DNA of 64,000 nt from assembly GCA_027494135.1 (NCBI GenBank), contig JAOSJK010000012.1, positions 546,795 to 610,794 of the forward strand, given 5' to 3'. The notes beneath the pieces are model-generated. The model saw nothing but the letters and a program-made list of their open reading frames with translations, searched no databases and was not told where the DNA came from. Of this stretch, positions 1 to 64,000 are shown piece by piece. How positions within the stretch are numbered: position 1 is the stretch's first letter; every line of letters begins with the position of its first letter. The stretch is from Acidimicrobiia bacterium. GTDB taxonomy: Bacteria > Actinomycetota > Acidimicrobiia > IMCC26256 > PALSA-610. The translations under genes were made by a program, and so were the position numbers.

Positions 1-88
1 AACCGTCGTAGCCGAGCTCCTCGAGCTCCCTCGCCGCCTGCCCGACGTCGCCGAGCCCCTGCACCATCAGTCCGCTGTCGACCTTCAT
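1..88 (-). CDS. LLM-class (luciferase-like) oxidoreductase, N-terminal fragment running off the window
   Basis: The reverse strand reads ATG (88..86) MKVDSGLMVQGLGDVGQAARELEELGYDG. A GGAGGA RBS lies just upstream on that strand. Only 29 codons are visible, so the family call rests on N-terminal pattern alone. Confidence 0.4.
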   Translation of the reverse strand, partial: MKVDSGLMVQGLGDVGQAARELEELGYDG

Positions 89-176
89 CTGCACTCCTCC
101 TGTGTGGAGCGGAGGCTACCGCCCTGCCCGGCCCGACCGCCGCGCCACCGTCCCACCCCACGGGTACCCTCCGAGC

Positions 177-1145
177 ATGGCACCGACGACCCGAGAACAC
201 ACCCAGGAACACACCCAGGAGCAGACCCGGGAGCACGCGCCTGGAAGCAAGCCTGAGACGCCGTCGGAGCTGCGGCCACCGCGGTCGCTCTCCCCCAGCT
301 CCATGTCGTCGTTCACGTCGTGCGCGCTCGCCTACCGCTTCGCGTACATCCAGCGCCTGCCCGAGCCTCCCTCCGCACCGGCGAGCAAGGGCACCCTCGT
401 GCACCTGGCGCTGCAGCACCTGCACAACGATCCCCCCGAGCTCCGCACACCCGCCCGTGCGCTCACACACCTCGACCGGGCACGCGACGACCTCGCCGAC
501 GACCCCGACTTCACGGGTCTCCGTCTCACCGACGACGAGTGGAGCGTCTTCCACGCCCAGGCCGCTGCCCTCGTGGAGAGGTACTTCGAGCTGGAGGACC
601 CCAAGGCGGTCCGATCGATCGGCCTCGAGCTGAAGCTCGAGGCCGACGTCGACGGCGTGAAGCTGCGAGGCATCATCGACCGGCTCGACCTCGATGCCGG
701 CGGCGAGCTCGTGGTCACCGACTACAAGACCGGTGCTGCGCCGAAGGAGCGCTGGGAGCAGAAGAGCCTCGCCGGCGTTCACGTCTACTCGCTTCTCTGC
801 GAGACCGCGTTCGGCCAGCGACCCGCACGCGTCCAGCTGCTGTACCTAGCAACCCCACAGGCGATCATCGCCACACCGACCGACGGATCGACCCGGGCCG
901 TCCGTGCCAAGTCGTCCGCCATCATGCGGGCGGTGCAGACGGCGTGCGAGCGCCGCGACTTCCGTCCCAGCAAGAGCGCTCTCTGCGCCTACTGCAGCTT
1001 CCAGGAGTTCTGCCCGGAGTTCGGGGGCGACCCGGAGCAGGCCGCGCCCGTGCTCCACGGCAGAGTCGCCTCCGATGCGGAGACGGGCCCGACGGCGGCA
1101 GAGACGCCACTCGCCGCGCTCCCTCACGCCACCGCGCGCCACTGA
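177..1145 (+). CDS. PD-(D/E)XK nuclease (RecB/AddB/Cas4-like) with a C-terminal Cys cluster
   Basis: ORF 102..1145, with the ATG at 177 chosen as start. It has the N-terminal LSPSSMSSFTSCALAYRF..LPEPPS motif, a DYKTG nuclease core and a C-terminal CAYCSFQEFC. Confidence 0.8.
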   Translation: MAPTTREHTQEHTQEQTREHAPGSKPETPSELRPPRSLSPSSMSSFTSCALAYRFAYIQRLPEPPSAPASKGTLVHLALQHLHNDPPELRTPARALTHLDRARDDLADDPDFTGLRLTDDEWSVFHAQAAALVERYFELEDPKAVRSIGLELKLEADVDGVKLRGIIDRLDLDAGGELVVTDYKTGAAPKERWEQKSLAGVHVYSLLCETAFGQRPARVQLLYLATPQAIIATPTDGSTRAVRAKSSAIMRAVQTACERRDFRPSKSALCAYCSFQEFCPEFGGDPEQAAPVLHGRVASDAETGPTAAETPLAALPHATARH

Positions 1146-1209
1146 CCCGGTCACATCGCTGACCCGGTCACGTCGCTGACCCGGTCACGTCGCCGATCCG
1201 GTCACGTCG
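1142..1209. repeat. 17-bp tandem repeat x4; each unit carries the palindrome TGACC-C-GGTCA
   Basis: Units are CTGACCCGGTCACATCG, CTGACCCGGTCACGTCG (x2) and CCGATCCGGTCACGTCG. The array starts on the nuclease stop codon (1143-1145) and ends 57 bp before the PAP2 start. Confidence 0.9.
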
Positions 1210-1265
1210 CGACGCGGCCCCGCCCAGCGGTCACAAGCAGACATCCCGGTAGGCTGCAGTCCCGC

Positions 1266-1868
1266 ATGCCGTCGCCTACCTCCCCCCTCCTGTCGCGCCG
1301 CGGTTCGATCGCGGAGGCCGACGACAGGATCGACGAGTGGGTCGATCGGTACCGGACGCCGGCACTCGATCACGTCTTCTACCCGCTCTCCTCGGCCGCC
1401 GACCACAGCCTCCTCTGGCTGGTCGCGGGTGCCGTGCGTTCGGCGCGAGGCGGACACCACCGCTCTGCGCAGTCTCACAGCCGCGATGGCGATCGAGTCG
1501 TTCACGACGAACGTCGTGGTCAAGTCGCTCTTCCGCCGCGTCCGGCCCCCCGCCCGATCGAGGGTCCGCTCCCCTACGGGATGCACACGCCGATCACCAG
1601 CTCTTTCCCGTCGGGACACGCCACGGCGGCCTTCTGCGCTGCGGCGCTCCTCGGGGATCGCCGCCGGAGCGCCCCCGCCTGGTATGCGCTGGCCGGTGCC
1701 GTCGCAGCCAGTCGCGTATACGTGAGGATGCACCACGCCTCCGACGTAGTCGCGGGCGCGGCGTTCGGCTGGATCCTCGGCTCAGCGCTTCGGAGGAGAT
1801 TGCCCCTAGACGGCCACCCCGGCCGTCGTCGCTCTCACGGGAATGCCACGGTGCGCCGCCGCGGTTGA
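1266..1868 (+). pseudogene. PAP2-family phosphatase; frame broken twice as sequenced
   Basis: The PSGHATAAF and SRVYVRMHHASDVVAG motifs are in the 1266 frame. The KSLFRRVRPP motif is in the 1429..1725 frame. Breaks lie near 1445 and in the C6 run at 1546-1551. Confidence 0.75.
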
Positions 1869-2585: not shown

Positions 2586-3999
2586 ATGTCAGACTCCGAA
2601 GCCATCATGTGGGCCGTCGACAAGGACCCGTCACTCCGCTCCGACTTCTGCAACCTCACGCTCCTCGAGTCCCCACCCGACAGGGCACGCCTGCGGCACA
2701 AGATCACATCGGCCGCCGACGCAGTCGATCGCCTGCACCAGCGCGTCGTCACGCCGCCGCTGCGCATCGCGCCCCCCGAGTGGGTCGACGAACCCGCACT
2801 CGACATCGACTACCACCTGCGCCACGTCGCCGCGCCGTCACCGGGAGGGATGCGCGACCTCCTCGACCTCGTGGCGACTCTCGCCGAGGCCCCGCTCGAC
2901 CGATCGAGGCCGCTCTGGGAGTTCACCCTGATCGAGGGGTTGGCCGACGGACGCGCAGCCCTGCTCCAGAAGGTCCACCATGCCGTCACCGACGGGGTCG
3001 GAGGGCTCCGCCTCTCGATGCACACCGTCGACCTGGAGCCCGACCCGCCCCTCGGCGCCGTCGCCGCGGAGGACCTGCGCGGAGCTCGGCGCGGAGCATC
3101 GCACTTCCGTCGCGTCGAACCCGCTGGCCCGTCGCTCGCCCCTCGACGTGGCCCTCGATGCGATCACAGACACGGCGGCAAGGCGAGCCTCCTTGGCCGG
3201 TCGCGCCCTCGTCGGCGGTGCGCACCTGGCGACACACCCCGCCGAGATCCCCGCAGTCGGTCGCGAGGCCGCCCGCCTGGCCGCCTCGATCCGCCGTCAG
3301 GTACTGGTCGCCGGACGCGGGAGGTCGCGCCTGCTGACCTCCCGGTCCGTCCGGCGACGCTTCGAGGTCCGCTCCTACGCGCTGGCCCCCGCCAAGTCCG
3401 CCGCGCACGCGCTCGGCGGCAGCGTCAACGACCTCTTCGTGGCGGCGGTCGGAGGCGCGCTCGGCCTGTACCACGATCGCATGGGCCACCCCTGCGACGC
3501 GCTCCGCATGGGGATGCCGGTGAACCTCCGTGAGCGCGATGACGACGGAGTCGGCGTCGCCAACCGCTTCGGCCCGGTGCGGGTCGTCGTGCCCGTCTCT
3601 CCCAAGGACCCCTCCGCCCGCTTCCACGCGGTGCGCGACTGCCTCGCGGCCACGCGGAACGAGCCGGCACTCGGGATCGTCGAGGAGCTCGCAGGGCTCG
3701 TCTCGGGGCTGCCCACCTCGGCGCTCGTCGCACTCACCCGCAGCCAGGCCCGGACGATCGACTTCATCACCTCGAACCTCCGCGGCAGCCCGGTCCCCCT
3801 GTACCTGGCCGGTCGCAGGATCCTCGCCAGCTACCCGTTCGGACCGCGTACCGCCAGTGCCGTGAACGTCACGCTCATGAGCCTCGTAGACGAGATGCAC
3901 CTGGGCATCAACCTCGACCCCGCGGCCTTCACCGATGTCACCCTCCTTCTCGACTGCCTCGACGAGTCGTTCGGAGCTCTGCTCGACCTCGGGCTCTGA
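2586..3999 (+). pseudogene. Wax ester synthase/diacylglycerol acyltransferase (WS/DGAT, Tgs-like); one frame break
   Basis: The N-terminal half (ORF 2580..3533) carries the HHAVTDGVGG catalytic motif. The C-terminal half (ORF 2980..3999) carries NDLFVAAVGGAL and FITSNLRGSPVPLYLAG. The frame switches somewhere in 3040-3110. Confidence 0.85.
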
Positions 4000-5777: not shown

Positions 5778-6761
5778 ATGACCACATTCGGGTTCCAGAT
5801 TCCCGGCTTCACCCATGCCGGCGAGACCGACGCCGAGATGTTCGACCACGTCGCCGCTCTCGCACGCGCTGCGGAGATCTCCGGCTTCGAGTCGATCTGG
5901 GTAATGGACCACTTCTGGCAGCTACCCGCCCTCGGAGGACCGACGCAGCCCATCCTCGAAGGCTGGACGCTCCTCGGAGCTCTCGCCGCGATCACGGAGC
6001 GGGTGCAGCTCGGTACCCTCGTCAGCGGCGTCACGTACCGCAACCCCGCTCTGCTCGCGAAGCAGGCGACCACGCTCGACGTCATCTCGAAGGGCCGCGC
6101 GATCCTCGGCATCGGCGCGGCGTGGTACGAACCCGAGCACGACGGGCTCGGGTTCGGGTTCCCGCCGGTCGGCGAGCGGATGGATCGTCTGGAGGAGGCG
6201 ATCAAGATCTGCCGCCTCATGTTCACCGAGGAGACGCCGAGCTTCGCCGGCCGCCACTACGAGATCGTCGACGCGCACAACGTTCCGCGGCCGGTCCACC
6301 CCGGCGGACCCCCGATCATGGTCGGCGGGTCCGGCGAGCGGCGCACGCTGCGGCTCGTCGCGCAGTACGCCGACCTCTGCAATGTGCACGGCAGCCCGGC
6401 CACTGTGCGCTCCAAGCTCGACGTGCTGCGACGCCACTGCTCCGACGTAGGGCGCGACCCCGACGAGATCACGAACACCCGGCTCGGCACGATCGTCCTC
6501 ACGCCCGACGCCGACGAGACCGCGCGCGTGATCACGTTCCTGCGCGGGATTGTCGGTGACGACTTCGAGGAGAGCTTCACCGTAGGGGAAGAGGAGGAAG
6601 TGCTGGAGCAGGTCGGCGCGCTCGTCGACGCCGGCCTCGACACCCTCATCTTCAACTCACCGCTCTCCGATCCACCTACCGTCGAGCGCACCGGCCGTCT
6701 GCTCGTCTCCCAACTTCGGTTGAGGCCCGGCCGCAGTCCGGCGCCTGCGGCCTCCGAGTAG
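5778..6761 (+). CDS. LLM-class F420-dependent oxidoreductase
   Basis: Intact 327 aa with a luciferase-like pattern: FESIWVMDHF, LGTLVSGVTYRNPALLAK, ILGIGAAW, PPIMVGGSGE. Confidence 0.85.
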   Translation: MTTFGFQIPGFTHAGETDAEMFDHVAALARAAEISGFESIWVMDHFWQLPALGGPTQPILEGWTLLGALAAITERVQLGTLVSGVTYRNPALLAKQATTLDVISKGRAILGIGAAWYEPEHDGLGFGFPPVGERMDRLEEAIKICRLMFTEETPSFAGRHYEIVDAHNVPRPVHPGGPPIMVGGSGERRTLRLVAQYADLCNVHGSPATVRSKLDVLRRHCSDVGRDPDEITNTRLGTIVLTPDADETARVITFLRGIVGDDFEESFTVGEEEEVLEQVGALVDAGLDTLIFNSPLSDPPTVERTGRLLVSQLRLRPGRSPAPAASE

Positions 6762-8921: not shown

Positions 8922-8930
8922 GGTTCGACG

Positions 8931-12175: not shown

Positions 12176-13561
12176 GTCCTCGTCCGTGGAGCCGACGATC
12201 TCGTAGCCTCCCACGTAGAGCGACATTCGCCCTGGCCGTCGTCACGCTCAGCGCGACCCTGGCTGCCCTGCCCACCTCCGAGCGACCGGCCTCGGCCGGC
12301 ACGACCGTCGTCGACGCCCGGCTGTACGCGCCCACCAGCAAGACCCCGTCGGTCCGTGTCGCCGGGATCGGCATACACCCGGATGGTCGCGGCTACTGGC
12401 TCGCCGCCGCCGACGGCAGAGTCCTCAGCTTCGGCTCGGCGGTCCACAGTGGTCCCACCTCGAAGATGCGGAGTCGCGGCCGCGTCGTCGATATCACGCA
12501 CACGCCGAAGGGCAACGGCTACTGGCTCGCGACGTCGACCGGCAAGGTCCGAGCCTACGGAACGGCACGCAGCTACGGGAGCGTCGCCACCACCGACCTC
12601 GACGCGCCGATCGTGGCGATCGCCGCGACTCCGACCGGCAGGGGCTACTGGCTCGCAGGCCGCGACGGCGGTGTCTTCGCGCTCGGCGACGCACGGTTCC
12701 ACGGGTCGGCCCGCAGCCTCGGCGTGCAGACACGGATCGTCGGGATCGCTCCGAGTCGGAGAGGTGGTGGCTATTACCTCGCATCCGCCGACGGCGGCGT
12801 CTACGCCTTCGGCGACGCGCGCTTCCACGGCTCCGCGACGCGCTACAAGCCCGACTCCTCGGTGACCTCGATCGCACTCAGTCGTACCGGGCGCGGCTAC
12901 TGGCTGGCGACTCGCAACGGCAGCGTCTTCGCGTTCGGCGACGCCCCGTACCTCGGCGGTCTCGGAGGTCGCTGCCCCGACGTCCCCGTCGCAGCGATAT
13001 CAGGCGGCCCCTTGGTCCGGGGCTACTGGATCTCGCTCACGAACGGCGGGGCCTTCGCCTTCGCTCCGGGCAACGGCGGAAAAGGGAGGTGCGGCGGCAC
13101 CCGCACACAACGCGCAGCGCGCGACATCTTCATGCAGGCAGATGCAGAGCGCGCCGCCCGGGGCCTGCCCGCGCTCACGTGGGACGCTCGACTCGCGCGG
13201 CACGCACGTTCATGGAGCAACGAGATGGCCCGAAGCGGGTTCCGGCACAGCGACCTCACACCTCTCATCGCCGGCTCTCCCCCGGTTCAACTCGGTAGCG
13301 GAGAACATCGCCTCAGGTCGCGGCCCCGGGGTCACCTCGGCCACGATGCACGCCATGTGGCTGCGCTCCGACGGGCACCGCGCGAACATGCTCCACCCCG
13401 GCCTCGAGGCAATGGGCGTCGGAGTCGTATGCGGTCCGGACGGAACCCTCTGGGCCACTCAGAACCTCGGCCGGTACTACACGTCGGGTCCCGGCCCAGG
13501 GTCGACGACGCCACCCGCGGGAAACCAGTCGTCGTACGCAGGCAGACCCGTCTCCTGCTGA
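12163..13561 (+). pseudogene. Secreted six-blade repeat protein fused to a CAP/SCP/PR1-like domain; one frame break
   Basis: It has a signal-like N-terminus and six ~40-aa repeats (GYWLxxxDGxVFAFGDAxFHGS). The CAP domain is split between ORF 12163..13707 and ORF 13142..13561 at the C5 run 13279-13283. Confidence 0.7.
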
Positions 13562-14685: not shown

Positions 14686-15466
14686 TCATGCAGGGGTCGG
14701 CACCTCCACGACCGGCAACAGCAGCACGGGCACCGGGGACGAGGAGAGAAGCGCACGCACGACGAGTGCGCGTCCGGGCGCCAGATCGCGACCCCATCCG
14801 ACGGCCACGAGATCCGCGTGCACCTCTGGAGACGACATCACGCACAACCTCGGCGGGGTTGCCGACCCTCAGCTCAAGCCTCAGCCCCTCGCTCTCGACG
14901 GGGGAGAACCTGTCGAGGAACTCCTCGGTCCACACCTCGGTGTCGTAGACCGCCGAGTCGCTGAATGCGGGCAGCGAGGACGTCTCGAAGACGTGCAGGC
15001 CGATCAGCTCGGGACCGTCGAGCGCCACAACGGGACCCAGCAGAGCCCGCAGCGCGCGGGTCGTCGAACCGCGGCCGTCGAGAGGTACCAGGACGCGCTC
15101 GACCGGGTCGACCTGTGTCACGGCCGGCGACACCACCAGGACCGGCTTGTCGACCGCCCGGATCAGCTCGAGAGCGACGTGCCCGGCCGGCTGCGGCCCC
15201 GTAGGCAGGCCACGGCAGCCCACCGCCACCGCGACGACGTCGGCATCAGTCGATGCCTCGACGATGCACGCGGTGGGATCGCCCTTCATCGCGCGGAGGG
15301 GTAGGCCCGCTACACCCGCCACCCCACCAGCCGTCTCTCCCGACCCGTTCTCGTGTACGTGGAGCGCGACGACATCGGCATCCAGAAGGAGCGCGAGGTC
15401 CCCGGCCGCATTGGCGACGCAGCGCGCCGCCGCCGAGTCGTCCAGAGCCGCCAACACGATGGCCAT
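14686..15466 (-). pseudogene. Tandem universal stress protein (2x USP domain); one frame break near the 3' end
   Basis: ATG at 15466 (MAIVLAALDDS...). After ...GNPAEVVRDVVS, a shift near 14833 restores EVHADLVAVGWGRDLAPGRALVVRALLSSSPVPVLLLPV with a stop at 14686. Confidence 0.8.
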
Positions 15467-15468: not shown

Positions 15469-18400
15469 TTACCCCTCTCTGAGCCGCGCAGCGCCGCGCG
15501 CGGCGTCGGGGAGCGCGAACTCGCTCACTCCCGCCCCCAAGTCTGCAACCTCGCCCGCGACCTCCACCCGCGCGCCTCCATCGGCGGTAAGACGGACCGA
15601 ACCGGGCTCCACGCGCACGCGAATCGCCGTGCCGCGGTAGCGGACGCGAACGTCGAGCGCGCTCCACGCCGTGGGCAGCCGAGGGTCTACAACGAGACGG
15701 TCGTCCCTCGCGCGCAGCCCGGCGAATCCGAACACGAGCGCCTGCCAGACGCTCCCCATCGCCGCGAGGTGCACGCCGCCGGCACCCGTCGCGGTCAGGT
15801 CATCGAGATCTATGCGCGCCGCGAGCCGCAGCGCCGCGACCGCGCCGTCCGTCATGCCGGCTCTAGCGAACAACGACGCGTGGACACCTGGTGACAGCGA
15901 CGAGCCGTGAGCCGTTCGCGGCTCGTAGTACTCGAGGTTCGGTACCAGCGAGTCGGGGGCCACCTCGTCGGGCACGAGGTGATGGAGCATCAAGACGTCG
16001 GCCTGCTTCACGACCTGCGAGCCCCGGACGCGCTCCCGCCCCAGCAGCAGGTCGGCCGTGATCGGTCGGCGGGGCGCAACCTCGGCGATGATCAGTGGCT
16101 CCAGGCCGTAGAAGCCTGCGAACTGCTCGTAGATGCCGGTGCGGCCGTCGTAGCCGTCGACCAGCGACTCGGCAAGATCCAGCCAGTGGCGCCGTTCGTC
16201 GCCGGACACCCCCGCACACGTTTGCGACACCTCCGCAGCGCGCCGGAGGTTCCAGCGCGCCATGACATTCGTGAACGCGCTGTCGTCGACCGGCTCGTGA
16301 TACTCGTCGGGACCGATCACCCCGTAGAGGTGCCCGGCCCCCGTGGTGTCGCGGCGGATGCGCGACGCCCAGAAGCGTGCCGTCTCTGCGAGCAGCTCGC
16401 AACCTGGGCCGGCGGCGAACTCCTCGTCACCGGTCCAGTCGATGTACAAGGCGGCCGCCCACGCCACCTGCGCCGTGATGTGCAGCTCGTCCTCTCCGGT
16501 GCGGATGGGCACCACCTGGCCCGCCCGGTCGCGTCCCGACCTGGGAGTCACGTCGTCGCCGCCGTCGGCCGACTCCCAGGGGAATCGGGCACCCGCAACG
16601 CCCGCCGCTCTCGCGGCATCGCGGGCCGTTGCAAGACGGCGGACCCGGTACTCGAGCATCGCCCGCGCCGCGCCCGGATGGGTGGCAGCGAGGAAGGGCA
16701 GGACGAAGGTGTCGGCGTCCCAGAACACGTGGCCGCGGTATGCGTGACCGGTGAGCCCACGCGCCCCGACCGCAGCCTCTCCGTGGTCGGCGGCGGAGCC
16801 CATCAGATGGAAGAGCGCGAGGCGCGTAGCTAGCTGGAGATCCTCGTCTCCCTCGATCGCGATATCGGCGCTCTCCCACCGAGCGGCCCACGCGCGACGA
16901 TGCTCCGCGAGCAGCACCTCGTAGCCGACCGACTCCGCGCGCTCGACGAGTGCGATCGACTCATCTCGCCGATCACCCCTCGCGCCCCTCGTGTACGCAA
17001 CGAACCGATCGACCGAGCCGGCGCCCCCGTCCGCTCCTCGATCGCCGCCGCGGTGACGGATTGGCGGGAGCCGCTCACCGTCATCCAGTGAACGCTCCCC
17101 TGGCTCCCCTCGGCTGCGCCGCCGCGCCCGGGAGGCACGAGCGGAGTGGAACCTTCGAGGCCCCTCCCTTCGCCGGCGGCACGCAGCACCGCCGTCCCGG
17201 GTCGCGCCAGCGACGAGAAGCGCAGGGCCGTGAATCCGCCCCTCGGGCCTTCGACCTCGTCGCCGAGCAGGCCGGCGCGCAGGTCGAGGACCCTGCGGAG
17301 CCGCTCGTCGGGCGCCAGGGCACCTGGCACCCGGTCCCAGAGTGGCGCGGCGAGGAGGTCGATCTGCGGACCGTCGCCGTCGTAGGCGCCCGCGACCAGG
17401 ACACTCGGGGTCGCCTCGTCGTGCCCGGAGGACGGGGGCGCCCGACGTTCCCATGAAGCCGTCGGCGATCGTCATCAGCGCCTCCCGTGACCTCTCACGG
17501 TTCGCGCCGACCCCGTCGACCACCATCGTCCAGCCGACTGTCTCGCCGGCCCGTGGCACCGCACGGGCTACGCGGCGCCGCACCTGATCGGCGAGGACCG
17601 CGCAGAACACGTCCGGACCTCCCGCGAGGTGGAGCACACCGTCGGGGACTCCTCTGGGCTCGACGCCGACCGAGAAGGCCGTCGCACCGCTCGCCTCCCC
17701 CACGAGCATGAGCGAGTCGCTCCCCGCCACACCCCCCCAGCGGACCGATCTCGTCCCCTGCGACGAGGACCAGTCCGGGAGCGACTCCGCGCCGCCACAG
17801 GTCTCCGAAGACGTACCGCGTGGAGTCGGACTTGTCGGTGAGCCCGATCTCCACGTGCTTCGCGTCGCTCGTCACACGCGGATCAGCGACACCTGATTCG
17901 CGCGCGCTCTGTAGAGCGAGGTCCACCACCTCCGGAAGACCTGCGAGTTCGGCGTCGCGGAGCCGCGCCTCCACCGCGGCGAGGAGCTCGTCGATGTGCG
18001 CCTTCGGTGGGTCCTCCCACTCCGGCAACGGGATGAGATCGATCTTGCGCCGGTTCAGCCGCTGGGAGACGATCGTCGCCTCGAGGCCGTGCTCCGCGAG
18101 CCTGGCCACAGTGAGTTCTGCTGCGCGGTCGAGGGCGGCCTCCTCCTCGGGCGTCGCCTCCCGCCGCTCCACGACTACCGGACCGTCGGGCCCGACCTCG
18201 AAGGTCTCCGACCCGCGGTTGAGGGCCAGTAGGAGCCGGCCCGGCCCGGTCGGTCGAGCGCAGAGCTGACCGTCGATGTTGCCGACGTGCGTGCCGCTGA
18301 CGACGACGACGTCGGCACCCAGCGAGCAGAGCTCCTCGACAAGGCCCCTGACCCGCGACGCGTCGGCGTCACGATCGGGTACCGCGGTACCGTCCCAGTC

Positions 18401-19167: not shown

Positions 19168-19195
19168 CCTGCGCCGTCGAATGTCGCCACCCGAC

Positions 19196-48720: not shown

Positions 48721-51700
48721 TCAGCGGAAGTCGCGGGAGGAGAGCGCGCCGGAGAGGCTGATGGGGAGGCGGGTGATCCGGCCGGCGACGAGGTTCGTGA
48801 CGCCCTGGTGGCGCTCCAGCACCCCGCGCACCCGCAGCGCGGGGGCGCCGCGGGCCACTGTCCGGAACCGCTTCCAGGTGCCCTTCGCACAGATGACGTT
48901 CATGAGGCCGGTCTCGTCCTCCAGGTTCAGGAAGACCGTGCCCTTGGCGGTCGAAGGCTGCTGGCGGTGGGTGACGATCCCGGCCACCTCCACGACGCTG
49001 CGGTCGGGCAGCCCTCGCAGATCGGCGGCTGTGACCACCCCCTGGCGCGCGAGCTCGTCGCGCACGAACTCGGTCGGGTGACGGGACGGCGAGAGCCCCA
49101 TCGCCCACAGGTCGGCGGCGAGCGTCTCGGGCTCGCTCATCCCCGGCAGCGTCGGAGCGTCGACGCCGGTCACCACTCCCGGCAGCGTCTCGGTGACCGT
49201 GCCGTCGCGATGCACCTCCGGACGAGCGGTGCCGAGAGCCCCCGCCGCCCACAGCGCAGTGCGGCGCGACTGGCCGAAGCACTGCTCGAACACCCCTGCC
49301 GTCGCGAGCGCCTCCACCTGGTCGACGGTCGCACCGGTCCGGCGCACGAAGTCCTCGAGATCGCCGAACCGCCGCAGCGCGCGCTCGTCGTCGACACGGT
49401 CGAGGAGCGCATCGTGCAGGCCGCGCACCGAACGCAACCCGAGCCGTACCGCCAGGTGAGACGGCTCCGCGCACCAGCCGCGCAGAGGACGCCCGACCGG
49501 CTCGACGTGGTCGGGACGCGGCTCGAGCGTCGCGTCGCGTCGCGAGGCGTCGAGGTCGGGGCCGAGTATCTCGACGCCGTGACGTCGGGCGTCGCGCACG
49601 ATCGTGTGCGGCGAGTAGAACCCCATCGGCTGAGCGTTGAGGAGTGCCGCCGTGAACTCCGCCGGGTAGTGGTACTTGATCCATGCGCTCGCATACACGA
49701 GGTACGCGAAGCTCACCGGAGTGGCTCTCGGGAAAGCCGAAGTCGGCGAACGCCTCGAGCTTTCGGGAGATCTCATCGGCGGTCTCGCCGGTTATGCCGT
49801 TGGCGGCCATGCCGTCCATGAGTCGCTGCCGCATCTTCGCCATGCGCGAGTGCGATCGCTTCGAGCTCATCGCCTGGCGGAGCTGATCGGCCTCGGCGGC
49901 ACTGAACCCTGCGACATCGATGGCCATCTGCATGAGCTGCTCCTGGAAGAGCGGCACACCCAGCGTCTTGGCCAGGCAGCGTTCGAGCAGCGGGTGCGGA
50001 TACGTGACGGGCTCCTCGCCGTTACGTCGTCGGAGGTACGGGTGCACGGAGCCGCCCTGTATCGGGCCCGGCCGGATCAGGGCGACTTCGACCACCAGGT
50101 CGTAGAACGTGCGCGGACGCAGGCGGGGCAGCGTCGCCATCTGCGCCCGGCTCTCCACCTGGAAGACGCCGACGGTGTCGGCAGCGCAGAGCAGGTCGTA
50201 GACCTCGGGCTCCTGCGGGATCGTCGCGAGGTCCACCTCTACACCCTCGTGCTCACGTACCAGATCGATGGCGAGGTGCAGCATCGTGAGCATGCCGAGC
50301 CCGAGGAGGTCGAACTTCACGAGACCGGCGGCGGCGCAGTCGTCCTTGTCCCACTGCAGCACCGACCGCCCCTCCATGCGCGCCCACTCGATCGGGCAGA
50401 ACTCGACGAGGGGCCGGTCGGCCATCACCATCCCACCAGAGTGGATGCCCAGGTGCCGCGGGAAGTCGAGCACCTGGCCCGCGAGGTCGAGGGCGAGACG
50501 TGGGATCGCGGGCGGGCGGGTGGCCGGCACCGACGGCCCCGTCAGGGCGGCGCCGTCGCGCATGCGGTCGCGCTCGCCCCGCTCGAAGCGGCGGTGCGTG
50601 GCGCCGTCATGCGCACGTGCGGCGGAGACGCCGCAGGCAGCACCATCGTGTGCGCGGCCCCCGCGCGTCCGTCGCCCTCGTCGGATGCCAGGGCGGTCTC
50701 GGCCAGCTCGGAGAACGCCTCGGGACCGGCGGCCCAGCGATCCACCCAGCGCCCCAGCGCGTCGGCCTGGCCGGGGGCGACGCCGACCACCTTCGCCATC
50801 TCGCGCAGCGCCGAGCGCGGCCTGTAGGTGATCACGTTCGCCACCTGAGCGGCGCGCTCGCGCCCGTAGCGCTCGTACACGTACTGGATCACCTCTTCGC
50901 GCCGCTGGTGCTCGATGTCGAGGTCGATGTCGGGGGGCCGTCGCGCTCGGGCGAGAGGAACCTCTCGAACAGCAGGCCGAGGGCGACGGCGTCGGCCTTC
51001 GTGACGCCGATCGCGTAGCAGACAGCGCTGTTCGCAGCGCTCCCCCGCCCCTGGCAGTAGATGTCGGACAGGTGGCAGAACTCGACGATGTCGAAGAGCA
51101 CCAGGAAGTAGCCGGCGAACCCGAGATCCTCGATCACCGATAGCTCGTACGCGAGCTGCCGCTGCGCCTGCTCGTGCTGCGGGTGGCTCGGCGGGTAGTA
51201 GACGGCGCCGCCCCGCCTAACGAGCTCGCGCAGCCAAGACATCTCGCTGTGGCCCTCGGGCACCGGGTAGTCGGGCAGCATCGGGGCGGCGAGGCGCAGG
51301 TCGAAGGCGCACGCCTCCGCGACCTCGGCGGTTCGCTCGACAGCCCCGGGCCAGCGTGCGAAACGTCGCGCCTGCTCGGCCGGCGAGCGGAGGTGCGCCA
51401 GGGGCGACGCCGGGAGCCAGCCGTCGAGCTCGTCGAGTGGCCGGCGCGCGCACCGCCGCGAGGGCGGTGGCCAGGGGCCGCTGCGCGCCGGTCGCGTAGT
51501 GGACGTTGTTCGTGGCGACCACACCGGCCCCCGCGGCGAGAGCGACCTCGGCCATGGCGTCGTTGCGGTGTCGGTCGAGCGGGTCGCCGTGATCACTCAG
51601 CTCGACGAGCACCCGATCGGCACCGAAGGCGTCGAGGAGCCGGAGCAGCTCATGGCGGGCCGCCGACGGGCCGTCGGCGGCGAGCGCCCGTGCCACGACC

Positions 51701-52413: not shown

Positions 52414-53315
52414 GTGCGTGCCAATCTCTCCCCGCGCCCGATCCGCCGGCCACCCGGGACGGATCCGGCCTCGACCCCGGAGCCGCTCACCTCGCGCCCC
52501 GAGCGGGCGCGAGGCCTCAGGCTCGCGGCCCGCGTCGCCGTGGTGGTGCTGGCATCCACGATGCTGCTCTGGACCGAGCTGACGCCCTCCGGGTGCCGCC
52601 GGGCCGCCGAGGCCCTCCGCCTACCTGTACGGCGACTCCCTCGCCCGGGAGTCGGCCGACTACTGGGAGATGCTCGCCACCGATCTCGGCTACGAGGCCA
52701 AGCAGAGCACCTACGGCGGGACGGCACCCTGCGACTTCCTGAGGACGTTCCGCAAGGACATGCGCCGCACGACGCCGAGGTACGTGGTCGTGGCCTTCAC
52801 GGGGAACAACATGACCTCCTGCATGGCCGACGAGGCCGGCGAGGCGCTGGTCGGCGACGCCCTCTACTCCACCTATCGCCGGGACCTGAACCGCTACGCG
52901 CGCATCGCCACCCGCGCAGGATCGACGATCGTCCTCGTGGGCCCACCGGAGTCGCGTGGTCGCGACGCCGGCCCCATGAACGAGGTGTACAAGACGATCG
53001 CCGACAGGTACAGGGGCGCTCTGTACGTCTACGGCGGCACCTACCTGACCCCGCGACGGCAGTTCCGGGCCACTGCGCCGTGCCTCTCGGGCGAGACCCC
53101 GGACCGGGGCTGCGGGCCCGACCACCGGATCAAGATCCGCAACCCCGACGGCACCCATCTCTGCCCTGAGCAGCCCGACGGGTACTCGCGGTCGTTCAGC
53201 GGCTGCCCCCGTCTACGCAGGCGGTGCGATGAGGTACGCCGAGACGCTCGTGTACGAGCTACCGCCGGCAACCTGTCGCCTCGTCTGCCTCGACGGCCGC
53301 GGCAACGGCCGGTGA
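52414..53315 (+). pseudogene. Secreted SGNH/GDSL-family hydrolase; two frame breaks
   Basis: The signal-like N-terminus is in ORF 52414..53169. The core (YLYGDSLA...VVVAFTGNN...IVLVGPP) is in ORF 52670..53359. The C-terminus (GCPVYAGGAMRYAETLV...*) is restored by a shift in the C5 run near 53205. The first break lies in 52583-52620. Confidence 0.65.
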
Positions 53316-53349: not shown

Positions 53350-55055
53350 TCAGTCGTAGAGGGCTTCGACACCGGCGCGACCGGCCTCGACCGAGATCAG
53401 GCAGGCGATCTCGCCACGCGATCCGGCATCGACGACCACCTGCCACAGCACGCGGCGACGGCGACCGGCCGGGTCCCACCAGCGCACGTCGTGCGGCCAC
53501 GGCCCCGCCCAGCCGCGCACCTCCCCCCACCGCCGGGGAGCACGCCGGCTCGTAGGAACGCCGGTGGCGCCGACGCCTCGCCGCGGCCCGTCACGACCAC
53601 GGGCCCACCGGCCGAGTCGAGGAGATCGGCGGGCAGCGGCGGCTCGAAGACGCGCGCCGGCGACGGCCGCGGCACCGCACCGGGCCAGCCGGGCCTCTCC
53701 CCACCGACGGAGAGCGGGAGCACCGGCTCCCGCGGCTCGCCCCATGGCACCCACCGCACGCTCTCCCCGGCGTGCGGCCCCCTGGGGGACCGCCGTGACG
53801 ACCGCGTCGTGACCGAGCATCCCCTGCACCCTGGCGAGAACCCGATCCGCCCGGTCGTGGACCACCTGGTCGCCGCCCCAGAACCCGAGCTGCCGCCCGT
53901 CGGCCGGCAGCACCTCATCGGGCACTATGCGCAGCAGCCCGATCGCAGAGGTGAGCGCCGCGTCTGCAATGACGGCTGCGTCCTGCCGGGCGCGCGGGTC
54001 ACCGAGGGCCGCCACGTCGCCGTCTCCCGAGCGCGCGGCGAACCAGCCGTCGAGCTGCCAGCGCACACGCTCGGCGAGTGCCGCCGCCGTGAACGCGCCC
54101 TCGTGACGCCAGCACCGGGCCAGGCGCTCCCCGTGCTCGGTCTCGGCCTCGACCATCACCCGCGTGCACACCAGGCCGCGCTCCCCCAGCCGCGCGAGGA
54201 GCCGGTCGGCGAGGGCCTTCGCCGCGAACGCCGCCGTGTCTACACGCGTCGCGGGCGGGTCGAGCTCGATCTGCTCCACCAGGTCGGGGGGAGGTTCGGT
54301 GAGCGCCAGCGACGCGTCGTCGAGCCCCCGGGCCAGGCAGTGGAGCCGGTGCCCCTCCGGGCCGAAGCGCTCCGCCACCGCTCCCGGAGGGAGCGCGGCG
54401 AAGTCGCCGACGGTGGGCAGGCCCAGGCGCTCCAGGAGGTCGGCCGTGGCCGGGGCGCCCAGGACTACCACCGGGAACGGGGCGACGAACGACGCCGACC
54501 CGCCGGGGGCGACGACGAGCGCCGCAGGGAGCCCCGAGGCCTCCGGCCGGGCGTTGCGAGCCGCGAGCTGCGCGGCGAAGCGGCCGTCGGCGACCCCGAC
54601 CCGCACAGGCGCAGCCGCGACCGCCGAGACCGCCGCGTGGACCGCAGCGTGGACCATCTCGGCCAGGGCCCGGTCGCCGCCGAAGTAGCGCGACGGGCCG
54701 CGCGTGGCGAAGGTGAGGAGGCCCGGCCGGACGATCTCGACCCGGGGGTGAACCCTCGACGGCACGGACGACCGCCTCGAACTCGGCGGCCTCACCATGC
54801 GGGTCGGCGTCTACCACCACCAGCCCCGGGCAGCGGGCCTCGGCCTCCCTGCGTCGCATCCCGCCCACCACCCCCTCGGCGCGCCTCGGCCGAGGCGGCC
54901 CGCACGGCGTCGCGACCACCGGCGCGCTCCCGCACCACCACCGCCACGCCGCGAAGGCCCGGGTCGCGACGGCGGGCTGCGGTCACGGGCCATCCGGGGC
55001 TCCACACGCAGCAGGAGCGCGTCACGACCTCCGGGCCCGCGCCGTCACCCTGCAC
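53350..55055 (-). pseudogene. imuB: ImuB (Y-family polymerase-like mutasome subunit); at least four frame breaks
   Basis: Pieces lie in ORFs 54792..55055, 53999..54919, 53350..54798 and 53397..53918 (VWSPGWPV..., GMRRREAEARCPGLVVV, RPGLLTFATRGPSRYFGG, C-terminal ACLISVEAGRAGVEALYD). Breaks are near 54890, 54750, 53790 and 53530. The exact start (55025-55055) is uncertain. Confidence 0.8.
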
Positions 55056-55755: not shown

Positions 55756-55765
55756 TCGACTGTAG

Positions 55766-55779: not shown

Positions 55780-55937
55780 CTCTGCAAGGGGTGTGGCCTC
55801 ACGGGCACCGCCACCCGGCGCGCCCCTCCCGACGGCTACCAGACCCAGCGGGTGGCCCCCACACCGGCAGAGCGCCGCTGGTGTCGGGCACCCGGCCCGC
55901 TGTCACCCGATTGACTGTCACACCCCTGTGCGATCAT

Positions 55938-57227
55938 ATGTTCGTGACACAGAGACCCATGACCCATCGACCGGATCTCCAGACGTTCCGATCTATCGGC
56001 GACGCGCTCGCGGGCCTGGTCGGCGTCCTCGACCCCGACCTGGTGCCGCTACCCGAGGCCGCCCGCTGGTGGGAGGCCCTGGACCGCATCGAGCGCCTCG
56101 CCGCAGGAGCCAAGACCCTCCTGGCCCGCCGGGTGGAGGAGTCGGGTGCCTGGGAGCGCTCGGGGGTGCCGGTCCGCTGCCGAGCACCTGGCGCGGGTAT
56201 CGGGGACCGGCGTCGGTCGCGCCCGTGACCAGCTCGCGGCGTCGAACGCGCTCCCCGGCCTCCCCGCCACCGACTCCGCGCTGCGCACGGGGGCGCTCTC
56301 CGCCGCGCAGGTCGGCGAAGTCGCCTCCGCAGCCGCTGTGAACCCCGCCGCGGAGGGCCGGCTCCTCGATGTGGCCGCGCAGGCGAGCATCTCGGTGCTG
56401 CACACCGAGGCACTTCGCGCCAGGGCTGCAGCCGACCCCGACGACACCTACCGGCGCATCAACCGGGACCGACGCCTCAGGATGTTCACCGACGCCGAAG
56501 GCGCATGGAACCTCCACGCCCGCGGCACCCCCGACGCGGGAGCGCGCATCCGAGCCGCTCTCGAACCGCTCATCGACCAGATCCTCGCGACGCCCGCCGA
56601 CGCCGGCAGCCAGATCCCCACGACGCCTACGCGTTCGACGGCCTCCTCGCGCTCGCAGAACACGCGCACCACGAGCCCCGCCAGCCCGGCACCGACCGCC
56701 GGTACCTCGCGCTGCTGCGCATCGACCTCGACGCACTCACCCGCGGGGCGACCGAGGGCGACGAGACGTGCGAGATCACCGGTATCGGCCCCATCCCCGC
56801 ACGCGTCGCCCGCGAGCTCCTCGGCGAGAGCATCATGAAGCTCGTCATCACCCGCGGCGTCGATGTCGCCAACATCACCCATCCCGGCCGCGGCCCCACC
56901 GCAGCGCAGCGCATCGCCCTGCTCTGGCAGTCGCCCGGATGCAGCGTCGAAGGGTGCGCCCGAACCCGAGTCGAGATCGACCACCGGGAACCGTGGGCCG
57001 CCACCCACCACACACGCCTCGACCGGCTCGACCCTCTCTGCGCCCACCACCACGACCAGAAGCACCGCCGAGGATGGGCTCTCACGCCGGGCACCGGGCC
57101 CCGCCCCTTCGTCGCACCCCACGACCCACGCCACCCCCGCAACACAGACAGGGCCGGCAGGGCCGACACACCCCCACGCCCCACCCTGACCCGGCCCCGG
57201 GGACAGCTGCGCCCGCTAGGCGGGTGA
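55938..57227 (+). pseudogene. DUF222 + HNH endonuclease (REP13E12-type family); two frame breaks
   Basis: Pieces lie in ORFs 55773..56228, 56146..56838 and 56505..57227. The C-terminal HNH region reads CSVEGCARTRVEIDHREPW...LCAHHHDQKH. Breaks are near 56170 and 56610. Confidence 0.75.
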
Positions 57228-57680: not shown

Positions 57681-58833
57681 ATGGACGACGCGCAGACGGC
57701 CGAGGCACCGGCCGGCCGAGACCGGGACCGGATGCCGGGGTGGATCCTGCGGGCGGTCCTGCTGTTCTGGATCGCCTACGCGTCGCTGCGAGTCGTCGAG
57801 AGCGTCCTCCACGCGCTGCGCGGGCTCATCATCACGGTGCTGGTCTCGCTCTTCCTCTCGTTCGCCATCGAGCCCGCAGTCAACTGGCTCGCTCGGCGCA
57901 ACTGGCGGCGCGGGCCCGCGACCGGTCTCGTCTTCCTCGCCCTTCTCTCCGTGACCGGCCTCTTCGTCACGGTCATGGGCTCGCTCGTCGTGAACCAGGC
58001 GCGACTTCATCGACGAGGCACCTGCATACGTGCAGGACATCGAAGACTGGGCCAACGACCGCTTCGACGCCAACATCGAGTTCGACGACGTGATCTCAGA
58101 CCTCAAGGATCCGCAGGGAACCGCCAGGCAGTTCGCGAACGACCTCGCCGGCAACGTCGTCAGCTTCAGCGTCCGCGCTCTCGGGGTGGTCTTCCAGATC
58201 TTCACGGTGATCCTCTTCACCTTCTATCTGGTCGCCGACGGCCCGCGGCTGAGGCGCGCCATCTGCTCGGTGCTCCCACCCGACAGGCAGCGCAACGTGC
58301 TGCGCGCCTGGGAGCTAGCCATCGAGAAGACCGGCGGCTACCTCTACTCCCGCGTCCTGCTCGCCGGTCTCTCGGCCCTCGCGCACTGGATCGCCCTCAG
58401 CATCATCGGCGTCCCCTACGCCCTCGCCCTCGCGCTCTGGGTCGGCGTGATCTCGCAGTTCATCCCCGTCGTCGGCACCTACCTCGCGGGCGCTCTCGCC
58501 GTGCTGATCGCGGTCCTCAACGATCCCGTCGACGGGGTGTGGACGCTCGGTACCGTCGTCGTCTACCAGCAGATCGAGAACTACCTCTTCGCGCCGCGCG
58601 TCACCGCGCACACGCTCTCGATCCATCCCGCGGTCGCGTTCGCGTGCGTGATCGCCGGCGCCGGGCTCATCGGCCCTGTCGGCGCTCTCCTCGCACTACC
58701 TGCCGCGGCGGTCATCCAGGCATTCATCTCCACCATCGGCGAGCGTCACGAGGTCGTCGAGTCCGAGCTCACCGCGGATAGGACGCGCCGGGCGCGCGGA
58801 CGACCTCCGCCCGAGCTCAGCCCGGAAGGCTGA
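57681..58833 (+). pseudogene. AI-2E family (PerM/YhhT-like) transporter; one frame break
   Basis: ATG at 57681 in the frame of ORF 57306..58781 (TM-rich N-terminus). It continues in ORF 58030..58833 (VGVISQFIPVVG, YQQIENYLFAPRV). The break is near 58000. Confidence 0.75.
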
Positions 58834-58858
58834 CGCCGCCACACCGAACGACAGCTGG

Positions 58859-61151: not shown

Positions 61152-61160
61152 TCCGCCGGC

Positions 61161-61448
61161 TCAGGCCTTGAGGCTGGCTACCAGGTCCTCGACCGCGATC
61201 GCCTGCATGGTGGTGGTGCGCATGGTGCCCCGCGCCGCGAGCTCGATCGCCGCCCTCGCCATCGACTTCTCGTCGGGGGCCTCGATGACGTTCAGGAAGT
61301 CGTACTGACCCATCAGCGCGTACTGCGCGATGACCTTCAACCCGAACGACTCGACCTCGGCGCGGACCTCGAGGATCCGATCGGGGTTCTTGCTCAGTGT
61401 CTCCCAACCGCCTGGGCCGAGAGTCGTCAGCATCACGTAGGTGGCCAC
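61161..61448 (-). CDS. GYD-domain protein
   Basis: Intact 95 aa. It contains the MGQYDF motif and the typical beta-alpha-beta pattern of GYD family proteins. Confidence 0.75.
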   Translation of the reverse strand: MATYVMLTTLGPGGWETLSKNPDRILEVRAEVESFGLKVIAQYALMGQYDFLNVIEAPDEKSMARAAIELAARGTMRTTTMQAIAVEDLVASLKA

Positions 61449-61457
61449 AGAACCAGC

Positions 61458-61886
61458 CTACCGGCCCGCCTCGAGACCGGCGATGCTCTCCGCCTCGGCC
61501 GGGTCGGGGTCGGTGGCGAACCAGGCATCGAGCATCTCGCGGGCGAGCGCGATGCTCGTCGTCCGCAGGCTCATCGCGAGAACGTTCGCATCGTTCCAGC
61601 GGCGGGCACCCGCCGCCGTCGCAGCGTCGCCGCAGAGCGCCGCGCGGACTCCCTTGACCTTGTTCGCGGCAATCGAGACCCCCGTGCCCGTCCAGCAGAA
61701 CAGCACCCCGCAATCGGCCTCCCCTGCCGAGACGATCTCGCCGGCACGCCGCCCGACCTCGGCCCACGCGATCTCCTCGCCGGCCGGCGGCCCGATCAGG
61801 ATCACCTCGACGCCGCGTGCACGCATGTCGGCCTCCACCGCGTCGGTCAGCGGCGTCCTCTCGTCTGATCCGACGACGGCGCGCAT
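61458..61886 (-). CDS. rpiB: Ribose-5-phosphate isomerase B (RpiB/LacA/LacB family)
   Basis: Intact 142 aa. Motifs: GVLFCWTGTGVSIAANKVKGVRAA and RWNDANVLAMS. Confidence 0.8.
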   Translation of the reverse strand: MRAVVGSDERTPLTDAVEADMRARGVEVILIGPPAGEEIAWAEVGRRAGEIVSAGEADCGVLFCWTGTGVSIAANKVKGVRAALCGDAATAAGARRWNDANVLAMSLRTTSIALAREMLDAWFATDPDPAEAESIAGLEAGR

Positions 61887-61963
61887 GCGGCCAGGTTACC
61901 TGCGCCCCGTGCGAAGTCGCCCCACCCACTCCGCGCAGATCCGGTAGCCGTAACCTGGCGCCC

Positions 61964-64000
61964 ATGCCTCAGAACGTCGCCATCGTCCCCCACACGCACT
62001 GGGACCGCGAGTGGTACTCGCCCTTCCAGACTTTCCGGCTGCGCCTGGTCCGTCTCCTCGACGACCTGCTGCCGATGCTCGAGGCCGACGAGTCGTACGC
62101 GCACTTCCACCTCGACGGGCAGACCGCCGTCGTAGACGACTACCTCGAGGTCCGGCCCGACGCCGAGGCGGCGATCCGGAGCCTGGCGGAGGCCGGGCGC
62201 ATCGCCGTCGGGCCGTGGATGATCCTCATGGACGAGTTCATGGTCTCGGGCGAGACGATGCTGCGGAACCTCCAGCTCGGTCTCGCCGCAGCCGGCCGGC
62301 TGGGCGGCACCTCGGAGGTCGGGTACCTGCCCGACATGTTCGGGCACATCGCGCAGATGCCGCAGATGCTCCAGCTCGCGGGGATCGATCATGCGGTCGT
62401 CTGGCGGGGCGTCCCGGCGGCCGTGGAGCAGACCGCGTTCCGCTGGATCGCGCCCGACGGCTCATCGGTGCGGGCCGAGTTCCTCGCCGGCTCCTACTCG
62501 AACGGCCGCGACATGCCGCGCGACGCGCCGAGCCTGATCGCCCGCGCCCGCGACTACAACGCCTCGCTGGGGCGGGCGCGCCTGGGCGACCTCCTGTTCA
62601 TGAACGGGACCGACCACCAGCTCCCTCAGCCGTGGCTCGGCAGCGTCGTAGCCGACGCCAACGCGATCCAGGACGAGTACCGCTTCACGGTCACGTCCCT
62701 CGCCGAATACCTGACCACGCAGCCGAGCGACGGGCTCTTCGAGTGGACCGGCGAGCTGCGCTCCGGCGCCCGCTCGAACCTGCTGATGGGCGTCGCCTCG
62801 AACAGGGTCGACGTCCACCGGCTCTGCGCGTCGGCCGAGCGGTCGATCGAGCGCCGCGCCGAGCCGCTCCAGGCCCTCCTCATCCCAGCCAATCGCTATC
62901 CGGGGGCCCTCCTCGACATCGCCTGGCGCAAGCTCGTATTGAACAGCGCGCACGACTCCTCGTGTGCGTGCAGCGCCGACGAGGTGGTAGAGCAGGTCCG
63001 CGTCCGCTACGCGGAGGCGCGTCAGATCGGCGACGGTCTCGCACGCGAGCGCTGCACACCCTGGCATCGGCAGTCGACGCGCCCCCGCGTCGACGATCGT
63101 CGTCAACCCGACGGCGCGCGACCGTGGCGGGCTGGTCGAAGTGACCGTACCCGGGTCGGGTCCGGTCCACTTCGTGGCGTCCGACGGCACGCAGAGGCCG
63201 GCCCAGGTCGTTTCGGAGAGCGGCGGCGAGGCATGGTCCATCGATGTGAGCGGCGACGACTTCTCCTGGGTTCTCGACCTGGCGAACGGGACCGAGTTCG
63301 CAGGTAGCCAGGTGGCGTCGTTCGAGATCACTCCCCCTACGAGTGACGGCATGCACGAGGTCTGCGTGCACGCGACCTCGCCGGGCGCCACGGCCATCGA
63401 CGTCGGCCCGCTGCGAGAGCACCTGGTCGCTCTCGCATCCACCGGTGAGTCGGTGCTGATCCGGCTCTTCCTCGCGCCGGTGTCCACGGTGGTCTTCGAC
63501 CCTGGCGAGGTCCCCGGGTACGGATGGGCGACGTTCCGCCCCGCAGAAGGGGCGTCGCCACCCGGCACGGTCGCGGCGACCACGGCGGGTCTCGGCAACG
63601 AGCACCTCCGGGTGACCGTCGACGCATCCGACGGCACATTCGCCGTCGCGATCAACGACGGTCTCACCGCCTCGGGCCTCGGCCGCCTGGTCGAGGGCGG
63701 CGACGGCGGCGACACCTACAACTACTCACCGCCGGTCGAGGACCGCGTCGTGGACCGACCCGACTCGGTGGCGGTGACGACACTCGAGTCCGGGCCGATA
63801 CGCGCCCGCCTGCAGATCGACTCCACCTACACGTGGCCACTCTGCGCGATCGGCGACCAGCACCACTGCACGCACCGCAGCGCGGAGGCCGAGTCGGTCG
63901 ACGTCCGCACCACGCTGGAGCTCCGCTCGGGCGAGCGGTTCCTGCGAGTGCGCACCGAGTTCGACAACAGGTTCCGCGACCACCGTCTCAGGGTGCACTT
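61964..64000 (+). pseudogene. GH38 alpha-mannosidase-like glycoside hydrolase (3' end outside the window); two frame breaks
   Basis: ATG at 61964 (VAIVPHTHWDREWY, PDMFGH, NGTDH). Two closely spaced breaks, near 63045 and in the C5 run near 63085, move translation into the third frame. That frame stays open to the window end (...EFDNRFRDHRLRVH). Confidence 0.8.

Follow-up and report, generated by a model that had tools for sequence, protein, structure and literature searches.

We analyzed a 64,000-nt stretch of DNA (hereafter the window; G+C content, 70%) from the GenBank metagenome-assembled genome (MAG) of an Acidimicrobiia bacterium (locus tags M5T61_), where it lies on a contig of 1,191,426 bp (1.19 Mb). 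Among its 57 genes are a dormancy-type cluster and the imuA'-imuB-dnaE2 block of the SOS mutasome, and many of the reading frames are broken: a codon-usage Viterbi segmentation and an analysis of the G+C content at third codon positions (GC3), which were used to locate same-strand frame switches, revealed 38 direct switches in the raw window. A preliminary description had counted at least 33 breaks in 19 genes and had weighed sequencing or assembly indels against recent, genuine inactivation. Comparison with independently assembled contigs of the same strain now makes it almost certain that the breaks are consensus errors of this one MAG and that the genes of the organism are intact.

Same-strain sequence was reached through the HAD-GH65 gene of the dormancy-type cluster. 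A protein search with its largest in-frame piece gave a 100% match to MCZ7536812.1 (M5T61_13535, hypothetical protein, 482 amino acids [aa]), and the 90% cluster of this fragment also includes a protein of 1012 aa (P0121) encoded on a Logan contig of SRR25580097. Further same-strain contigs were reached outward via the near-identical proteins P0242, P0188, P0362, P0384, and P0386; the first of these was among the hits of a chimeric 1,080-aa query, all of which were PEP synthase homologues. The references are contigs assembled by the Logan project from SRR25580095, SRR25580096, SRR25580097, and SRR5381729, which cover window positions 1 to 31404, 31628 to 49946, and 50339 to 64000 (63,385 of 64,000 nt). 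Each of them aligns across its full retrieved length or to the window end with an identity of 99.83 to 99.98%. Among themselves, they are 100.000% identical in all overlaps; positions covered by two or three runs read the same in each of these, also at the sites where the window departs from them. Indeed, a window edited at these sites was 100.000% identical to all thirteen reference loci.

SRR5381729 belongs to an unrelated accession series, yet the same strain is present in all four runs with 100.000% identity over the overlaps, which, as judged from the sequences, points to a remarkably clonal recurrent population. The reference contigs end at 31404/31628, in the hydrogenase large-subunit gene, and at 49946/50339, in dnaE2. 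At 31628, contigs of two different runs begin at exactly the same position, which may reflect a k-mer repeat that they have in common or variation within the population at this point.

Relative to the reference contigs, the window contains 40 indel events and 14 substitutions. The indels comprise 27 net losses and 13 gains, and the window is 21 nt short overall. Together with one event inferred at 31509 to 31513, this makes 41 events, which affect 22 of the 57 genes. They are listed below; "true" denotes the reference-contig sequence, events were called by alignment of the window to the contigs unless stated otherwise, and "break" gives the position of an indel that coincides with a frame break of the preliminary description.

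1439..1446, plus strand: PAP2 gene, "GC" lost from a (GC)n tract, true GGCGCGCGAG, window GGCGCGAG; three runs agree; break 1443
1546..1551, plus strand: PAP2 gene, window C6, true C7 (-1); three runs agree; break 1546
3073..3080, plus strand: WS/DGAT gene, "GC" lost from TGCGCGCGG; three runs agree; break 3077
6709..6711, plus strand: last codons of the luciferase-like gene, window CCC, true CC (+1); open reading frame (ORF) changed from 314 to 327 aa
12011..12015, plus strand: last codons of the VanW gene, window C5, true C6 (-1); an A>C substitution adjoins at 12023
13279..13283, plus strand: CAP-domain gene, window C5, true C7 (-2); break 13279
14828..14829, minus strand: USP gene, extra G, true CTCTGAGAC, window CTCTGGAGAC; break 14828
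17024..17028, minus strand: HAD-GH65 gene, window C5, true C6 (-1); break 17029
17427..17428, minus strand: HAD-GH65 gene, extra G at CCGAG, true CCCGAGGAC, window CCCGGAGGAC; break 17428
17732..17738, minus strand: HAD-GH65 gene, window C7, true C6 (+1); break 17738
18816..18820, minus strand: response-regulator receiver gene, window G5, true G4 (+1); break 18820
19190..19192, intergenic: window C3, true C4 (-1); event position 19193
19273..19277, minus strand: DUF1918 gene, window G5, true G4 (+1); break 19273
20425..20427, plus strand: AAA_33/APH gene, window CCC, true CC (+1) in CTCCGGAG; two runs agree; break 20425
20606..20607, plus strand: AAA_33/APH gene, T lost, true CGCGTGCC, window CGCGGCC; two runs agree; break 20607
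21538..21539, plus strand: PEP synthase gene, window GG, true GGG (-1); two runs agree; break 21538
22848..22852, plus strand: PEP synthase gene, window C5, true C4 (+1); two runs agree; break 22848
23950..23950, plus strand: PRTase-fusion gene, G lost, true CTCGGACTC, window CTCGACTC; break 23950
27472..27475, plus strand: baeRF (eRF1-like) gene, window G4, true G5 (-1); break 27472
31509..31513, plus strand: [NiFe]-hydrogenase large-subunit gene, window C5, inferred true C4 (+1), from the frames and a PDB alignment
42289..42290, intergenic: G lost from CTCCGCGCGCAC; three runs agree, SRR5381729 included; event position 42290
43768..43769, minus strand: PhoU/TrkA-C gene, extra G at CCGAG, true GTCCGAGAAG, window GTCCGGAGAAG; two runs agree, SRR5381729 included; break 43768
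49718..49719, minus strand: dnaE2, extra G at CCGAG, true CACCGAGTGG, window CACCGGAGTGG; break 49719
50600..50601, minus strand: dnaE2, C lost from GTGCGCGCC; break 50601
50932..50937, minus strand: dnaE2, window G6, true G7 (-1); break 50938
51444..51455, minus strand: dnaE2, "GC" lost from a (GC)5 tract; break 51452
52589..52590, plus strand: SGNH/DUF459 gene, extra C, true CCCTCGGGTG, window CCCTCCGGGTG, which is CCGAG on the opposite strand; break 52590
53206..53210, plus strand: SGNH/DUF459 gene, window C5, true C4 (+1); break 53210
53523..53528, minus strand: imuB, window C6, true C7 (-1); event position 53529
53756..53764, minus strand: imuB, complex, "AC" lost and T inserted, net -1; event position 53760/64
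53778..53782, minus strand: imuB, window C5, true C6 (-1); event position 53783
54744..54748, minus strand: imuB, window G5, true G6 (-1); two runs agree; event position 54749
54753..54755, minus strand: imuB, window C3, true C4 (-1); two runs agree; event position 54753
54879..54888, minus strand: imuB, "GC" lost from GGCGCGCGCC; two runs agree; event position 54885
55856..55860, minus strand: N-terminal part of imuA', window C5, true C6 (-1), intact 297 aa versus a window ORF of 236 aa; two runs agree; event position 55861
56162..56166, plus strand: DUF222/HNH gene, window G5, true G4 (+1); two runs agree; break 56166
56585..56585, plus strand: DUF222/HNH gene, T lost, true CCTTCGCGAC, window CCTCGCGAC; two runs agree; break 56586
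57176..57183, plus strand: last codons of the DUF222/HNH gene, "GC" lost from CACGCGCCCC; two runs agree; event position 57180
58000..58007, plus strand: AI-2E transporter gene, "CG" lost from GGCGCGCGAC; three runs agree; break 58004
63048..63049, plus strand: GH38 gene, C lost, true GCGACGCGCTG, window GCGAGCGCTG; break 63049
63082..63086, plus strand: GH38 gene, window C5, true C6 (-1); break 63087

All 33 breaks counted in the preliminary description coincide with indels relative to the reference contigs, except for the hydrogenase break, which was confirmed indirectly; the four frame changes visible in imuB arise from six events. Eight events came in addition (6709, 12011, 19193, 42290, 55861, 57180, and two more in imuB). 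The same-strand switch at 43766 was considered as a gene boundary, and this was rejected, since comparison with a related species (L082) and with the Logan contigs identified a true break in the PhoU/TrkA gene. Seven of eight homopolymers given earlier as examples of break sites were correct, whereas the run at 17434 to 17438 was rightly called G5 and the true error is the extra G at 17427 to 17428. The error load of the window is about 0.85 per kb (roughly Q31), and about 39% of its genes are frameshifted.

When the reference differences were introduced and one C was removed at 31509 to 31513, every gene was restored, in agreement with the earlier preference for sequencing or assembly indels. 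Viterbi segmentation of the corrected sequence left 14 of the 38 same-strand switches, and since each of these lies at most 39 nt from the stop codon of the upstream gene, they are ordinary gene junctions and none is internal. The corrected ORFs are uninterrupted, with no premature stops or truncations. Intact genes were called in the reference contigs for PAP2 (201 aa), WS/DGAT (471 aa), CAP (466 aa), USP (259 aa), HAD-GH65 (1012 aa), the receiver protein (174 aa), DUF1918 (78 aa), AAA_33 (505 aa), PEP synthase (768 aa), the PRTase fusion (461 aa), baeRF (364 aa), PhoU/TrkA (415 aa), SGNH (299 aa), ImuB (570 aa), ImuA' (297 aa), DUF222 (410 aa), AI-2E (384 aa), and GH38 (909 aa). DnaE2 (1153 aa) is split over two reference contigs and is full length, as a single ORF, only in the corrected window.

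If the k-mer-based Logan assemblies had collapsed or altered repeats, the errors would lie in the reference contigs and not in the window. In favor of this, breaks at shared points (31404/31628 and 49946/50339) occur in the contigs of two runs. However, it is only in the reference versions that the ORFs run uninterrupted to the length found in relatives, i.e., 570 versus 548 aa for ImuB, 415 versus 415 aa for PhoU/TrkA, and 384 versus 384 aa for AI-2E; DnaE2 is encoded in a single frame, as it is in the relatives' loci L001, L002, L003, and L005; and up to three independent runs per site yielded the same sequence. Errors on the side of the references are thus improbable in the extreme.

The hydrogenase break falls within the 223 nt (31405 to 31627) outside reference-contig coverage. 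The contigs flanking it sit in window frames +0 and +1, and removal of one C at 31509 to 31513 gave a hydrogenase large subunit of 434 aa. This protein aligned end to end (residues 13 to 427 versus 10 to 426; E = 1e-64) with PDB 9nez_D, the alpha subunit of a group 3b [NiFe]-hydrogenase of the Pyrococcus sulfhydrogenase type. A pattern scan of JGI metagenomes that allowed 4 to 6 bases at the C run found no match for the region around 31509.

None of the 40 compared indels was present in any of the four runs (0/40); all are private to the MAG. Would the MAG sample then have contained a repair-deficient mutator sublineage with genuinely and recently inactivated genes, while the four SRA populations kept the ancestral, intact ones? 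If so, true inactivation of the imuA'-imuB-dnaE2 mutasome and of the dormancy cluster in the MAG sample would contrast with intact copies in sister populations, and the absence of in-frame stops would date the lesions to the very recent past. A mismatch-repair-deficient spectrum is indeed resembled by indels in mono- and dinucleotide repeats together with substitutions that are mostly transitions (13 of 14). However, 22 of 57 genes (39%) are hit and coding DNA is not depleted of indels (38 of 40 are located in coding sequence, and 92.7% of the window is coding); extrapolated to the whole genome, this is incompatible with a viable cell. Moreover, no more than 5 ordinary substitutions in 63 kb stand against 40 indels, and the four runs, one of them unrelated, are mutually identical. 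We therefore regard a mutator burst as very improbable. The window shares with reductive decay of the Mycobacterium leprae type, which leaves abundant pseudogenes, that many genes of an actinobacterial genome are frameshifted, stress and repair genes included, but it lacks stop codons, deletions, and a raised substitution load, its lesions are absent from the populations of the four runs, and its indels are neither depleted in nor specific to dispensable genes.

Relatives on long contigs can show breaks of their own, which also speaks for assembly errors. A degenerate-pattern scan, run with the dnaE2 C terminus against species-representative genomes, placed the organism among uncultured Acidimicrobiia; its nearest relatives share 85% protein identity. 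In L082 (ERZ25039603 contig_4523, a 1.64-Mb contig; 8965 to 12395), dnaE2 has two frame breaks at positions unlike those of the window, and in L022 (MFD02416.bin.2.90, a 1.16-Mb contig; 8351 to 11732), it has one, again at another position. The gene is unbroken in the short-read MAG loci L001, L002, and L003 and likewise in L005, which is on a long contig.

Next to their absence from independent data, the sequence contexts of the events are informative. G/C runs with a true length of 4 or 5 were rarely miscalled (7 of 449 [1.6%] and 1 of 118 [0.8%], respectively), whereas runs of 6 were miscalled in 7 of 25 cases (28%) and runs of 7 in 4 of 6 (67%). Of the miscalled runs of 6 and 7, 10 of 11 were shortened; the miscalled runs of 4 were lengthened to 5 in 5 of 7 cases. 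Such a pull towards five resembles a bias in the estimation of run length, which also argues against a mutator. Of the alternating GC tracts of at least 7 nt, 6 of 50 were short by one "GC" unit or by one base; among tracts of 6 nt, 1 of 99 was hit. At the 483 CCGAG sites, five indels were caused (four G insertions and one deletion), and a sixth site adjoins the (GC)n deletion at 54885. The statement that breaks often sit in G/C runs of 5 to 7 holds for 17 of the 41 events, as judged by run length in the window, but overall only about half are in homopolymers: 20 of 41 lie in G/C runs with a true length of at least 4, and the rest lie in (GC)n tracts and short contexts.

Some of the breaks do sit in G/C runs of 6 to 7 or in (GC)n tracts that are able to slip, and length changes of mono- and dinucleotide tracts shift the frame in slipped-strand phase variation as well, which acts at simple-sequence contingency loci. 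The repeats might then be functional switches, by phase variation or by programmed or regulatory frameshifting, that were caught in their "off" states in the MAG. But the window has 41 sites in 22 unrelated genes, many of them nonrepetitive (runs of 1 to 3), and its tracts of 1 to 7 nt or (GC)3-5 are short compared with known contingency repeats. They are spread anywhere along the ORFs and not near the 5' ends, and tract lengths were uniform among the four independent runs. We consider switching of this kind scarcely credible.

Substitutions were far fewer than indels (indel:substitution ratio, 40:14), with at most 5 outside a single motif in 63,385 nt. They were as follows.

5268, plus strand: T>C in CGCGTC, thiolase S249P
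39735, plus strand: T>C in CGCGTC, GNAT/CoA-ligase protein V68A; three runs agree
15845, 17507, 17792, 18577, 22286, 26123, and 39218: T>C in CGCGTC
12023 A>C, 16863 C>T (minus strand), 18738 C>T, 19125 T>C, and 19846 C>T: no shared motif

Each of the five substitutions without the shared motif could be an error or a true single-nucleotide polymorphism. The other nine (9 of 14) are all in one orientation, among 160 GACGCG sites on both strands, with 0 at the approximately 80 sites of opposite orientation; the extended motif GACGCGG was present at 7 of the 9. Confinement of 9 of 14 substitutions to one hexamer in one orientation is unlike replication errors and again speaks against a mutator. 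It could reflect a strand bias of the polisher or basecaller or be a hint of a modification motif. The recurrent GACGCG and CCGAG contexts might conceivably mark DNA modification motifs of this uncultured Acidimicrobiia lineage. If DNA methylation was the cause, its penetrance would be low (9 of 160 GACGCG sites and 5 indels at 483 CCGAG sites). Given also the strand specificity of the substitutions, a context bias of the basecaller or polisher fits the motif errors at least as well.

The preliminary description had also pointed to a very uneven spread of the breaks, and this was borne out by a dispersion chi-square test (P = 0.018 in 2-kb bins and P = 0.0003 in 4-kb bins). The regions 4 to 12 kb and 35.9 to 43.2 kb, described as free of breaks, are nearly clean but contain the hidden indels at 6709 and 42290; the event at 12011 lies just outside. 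By stretch, the indels were distributed as follows.

31,628 to 48,689: 2 indel events (0.12 per kb), 10.7 expected at a uniform rate, Poisson P = 0.0015
50,339 to 64,000: 18 indel events (1.32 per kb), 8.6 expected, Poisson P = 0.003
The other three stretches (1 to 31,404): 19 events in total (0.55 to 0.65 per kb), 19.6 expected in total, not significant

Indels correlated with the local G+C content (Spearman rho = 0.61, P = 2e-4 in 2-kb bins; rho = 0.74 in 4-kb bins), and the noisiest block, at 50 to 58 kb, has a G+C content of 73 to 77% and includes imuA'-imuB-dnaE2. With the count of error-prone contexts, indels correlated only weakly and not significantly (rho = 0.28), and runs of at least 6 were miscalled in 0 of 6 cases at 31.6 to 48.7 kb versus 6 of 9 at 50.3 to 64 kb. 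The density of error-prone contexts was therefore rejected as a sufficient cause of the clustering; the per-site error probability varies by region. The clustering had been taken earlier as a possible sign that the dormancy genes and the SOS mutasome are preferentially and genuinely inactivated. This was not upheld: the genes are intact in the four runs, indel density follows G+C content and not function, and most of the differences are systematic errors tied to sequence context. The pattern is without a link to gene function, and mutasome and dormancy genes are hit because of the location and composition of their DNA.

Four types of miscall, each bound to a sequence context, account for these observations. 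G/C homopolymers are drawn to a length of about 5, with true runs of 6 to 7 dropping one or two bases and miscalled runs of 4 mostly growing by one; alternating (GC)n tracts and other CGCG-rich contexts lose a "GC" unit or one base; G is added ahead of AG, above all at CCGAG; and T is read as C within CGCGTC. The per-site error probability climbs with the local G+C content, so that the imuA'-imuB-dnaE2 block (73 to 77%) and parts of the dormancy cluster are error rich and the region at 31.6 to 48.7 kb is error poor. The source was most probably noisy nanopore-type long reads with incomplete polishing, as inferred from the error profile and the 1.19-Mb contig. Consensus indels of nanopore assemblies, notably in homopolymers, lead to frameshifted gene calls, especially in MAGs with a coverage below about 40-fold and without short-read polishing (PMC9262707). 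As in nanopore or poorly polished assemblies, indels far outnumber substitutions in the window, errors depend on homopolymer length, a MAG contig of great length carries fragmented gene calls, and the errors vanish against independent data, while long-contig relatives are broken at other positions. The window differs from them in that homopolymers account for only about half of its events, with (GC)n contractions, an added G at CCGAG, and one-orientation T>C changes at CGCGTC making up the rest. Gene calls that are shifted or cut short by homopolymer and context indels in such assemblies are also the subject of the IDEEL test and, reportedly, of Watson and Warr (2019).

Several points weigh against consensus errors. 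Nanopore reads are no more than the probable source, and a literature search with the run and protein accessions gave no hit. One break (31509 to 31513) and 615 nt of the window are without a same-strain reference. The contexts alone leave the regional differences unexplained and call for a further factor, which is likely to be coverage or local depth, the success of short-read polishing, or a loss of basecalling accuracy in GC-rich DNA. Finally, the clustering in particular gene blocks is real and, like the repeat indels and transitions discussed above, would also be compatible with a mutator.

Once corrected, the region from 12,000 to 35,000 is a compact cluster that resembles the DosR dormancy regulon of mycobacteria. 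It encodes USP, HSP20, the OtsB1-like HAD-GH65 protein, DUF1918, an Rv2004c-like AAA_33/APH protein, PEP synthase, an Rv0571c-like PRTase fusion, an M50/CBS protease, baeRF, and a group 3b [NiFe] hydrogenase with HycI. In the relative L005, homologues of the genes at 10.8 to 13.5 kb adjoin homologues of the genes at 35 to 42 kb, and therefore the dormancy-type cluster may be an insertion or island. Elsewhere in the window, a DUF222/HNH-type gene (410 aa; window 55,045 to 57,190) lies immediately upstream of the imuA'-imuB-dnaE2 cassette, from which it diverges; its product is about 140 aa longer than the homologue in the related species L082 (268 aa).

The errors have entered the databases: GenBank holds fragments and altered proteins from this MAG. 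MCZ7536812.1 (gene at 15469 to 18508) is the 482-aa fragment of an enzyme of 1012 aa, MCZ7536801.1 (window 4524 to 5708) has P249 in place of S, MCZ7536833.1 (window 39533 to 42244) has A68 in place of V, and MCZ7536847.1 (window 57216 to 57584) is called with 264 aa versus 122 aa in independent assemblies. Pseudogene counts, pangenome and metabolic inference, and protein-family statistics would be misled by such assemblies, with GC-rich genes being affected preferentially. For the organism itself, the frame breaks do not represent a biological feature; its dormancy-type cluster and its SOS mutasome are intact.

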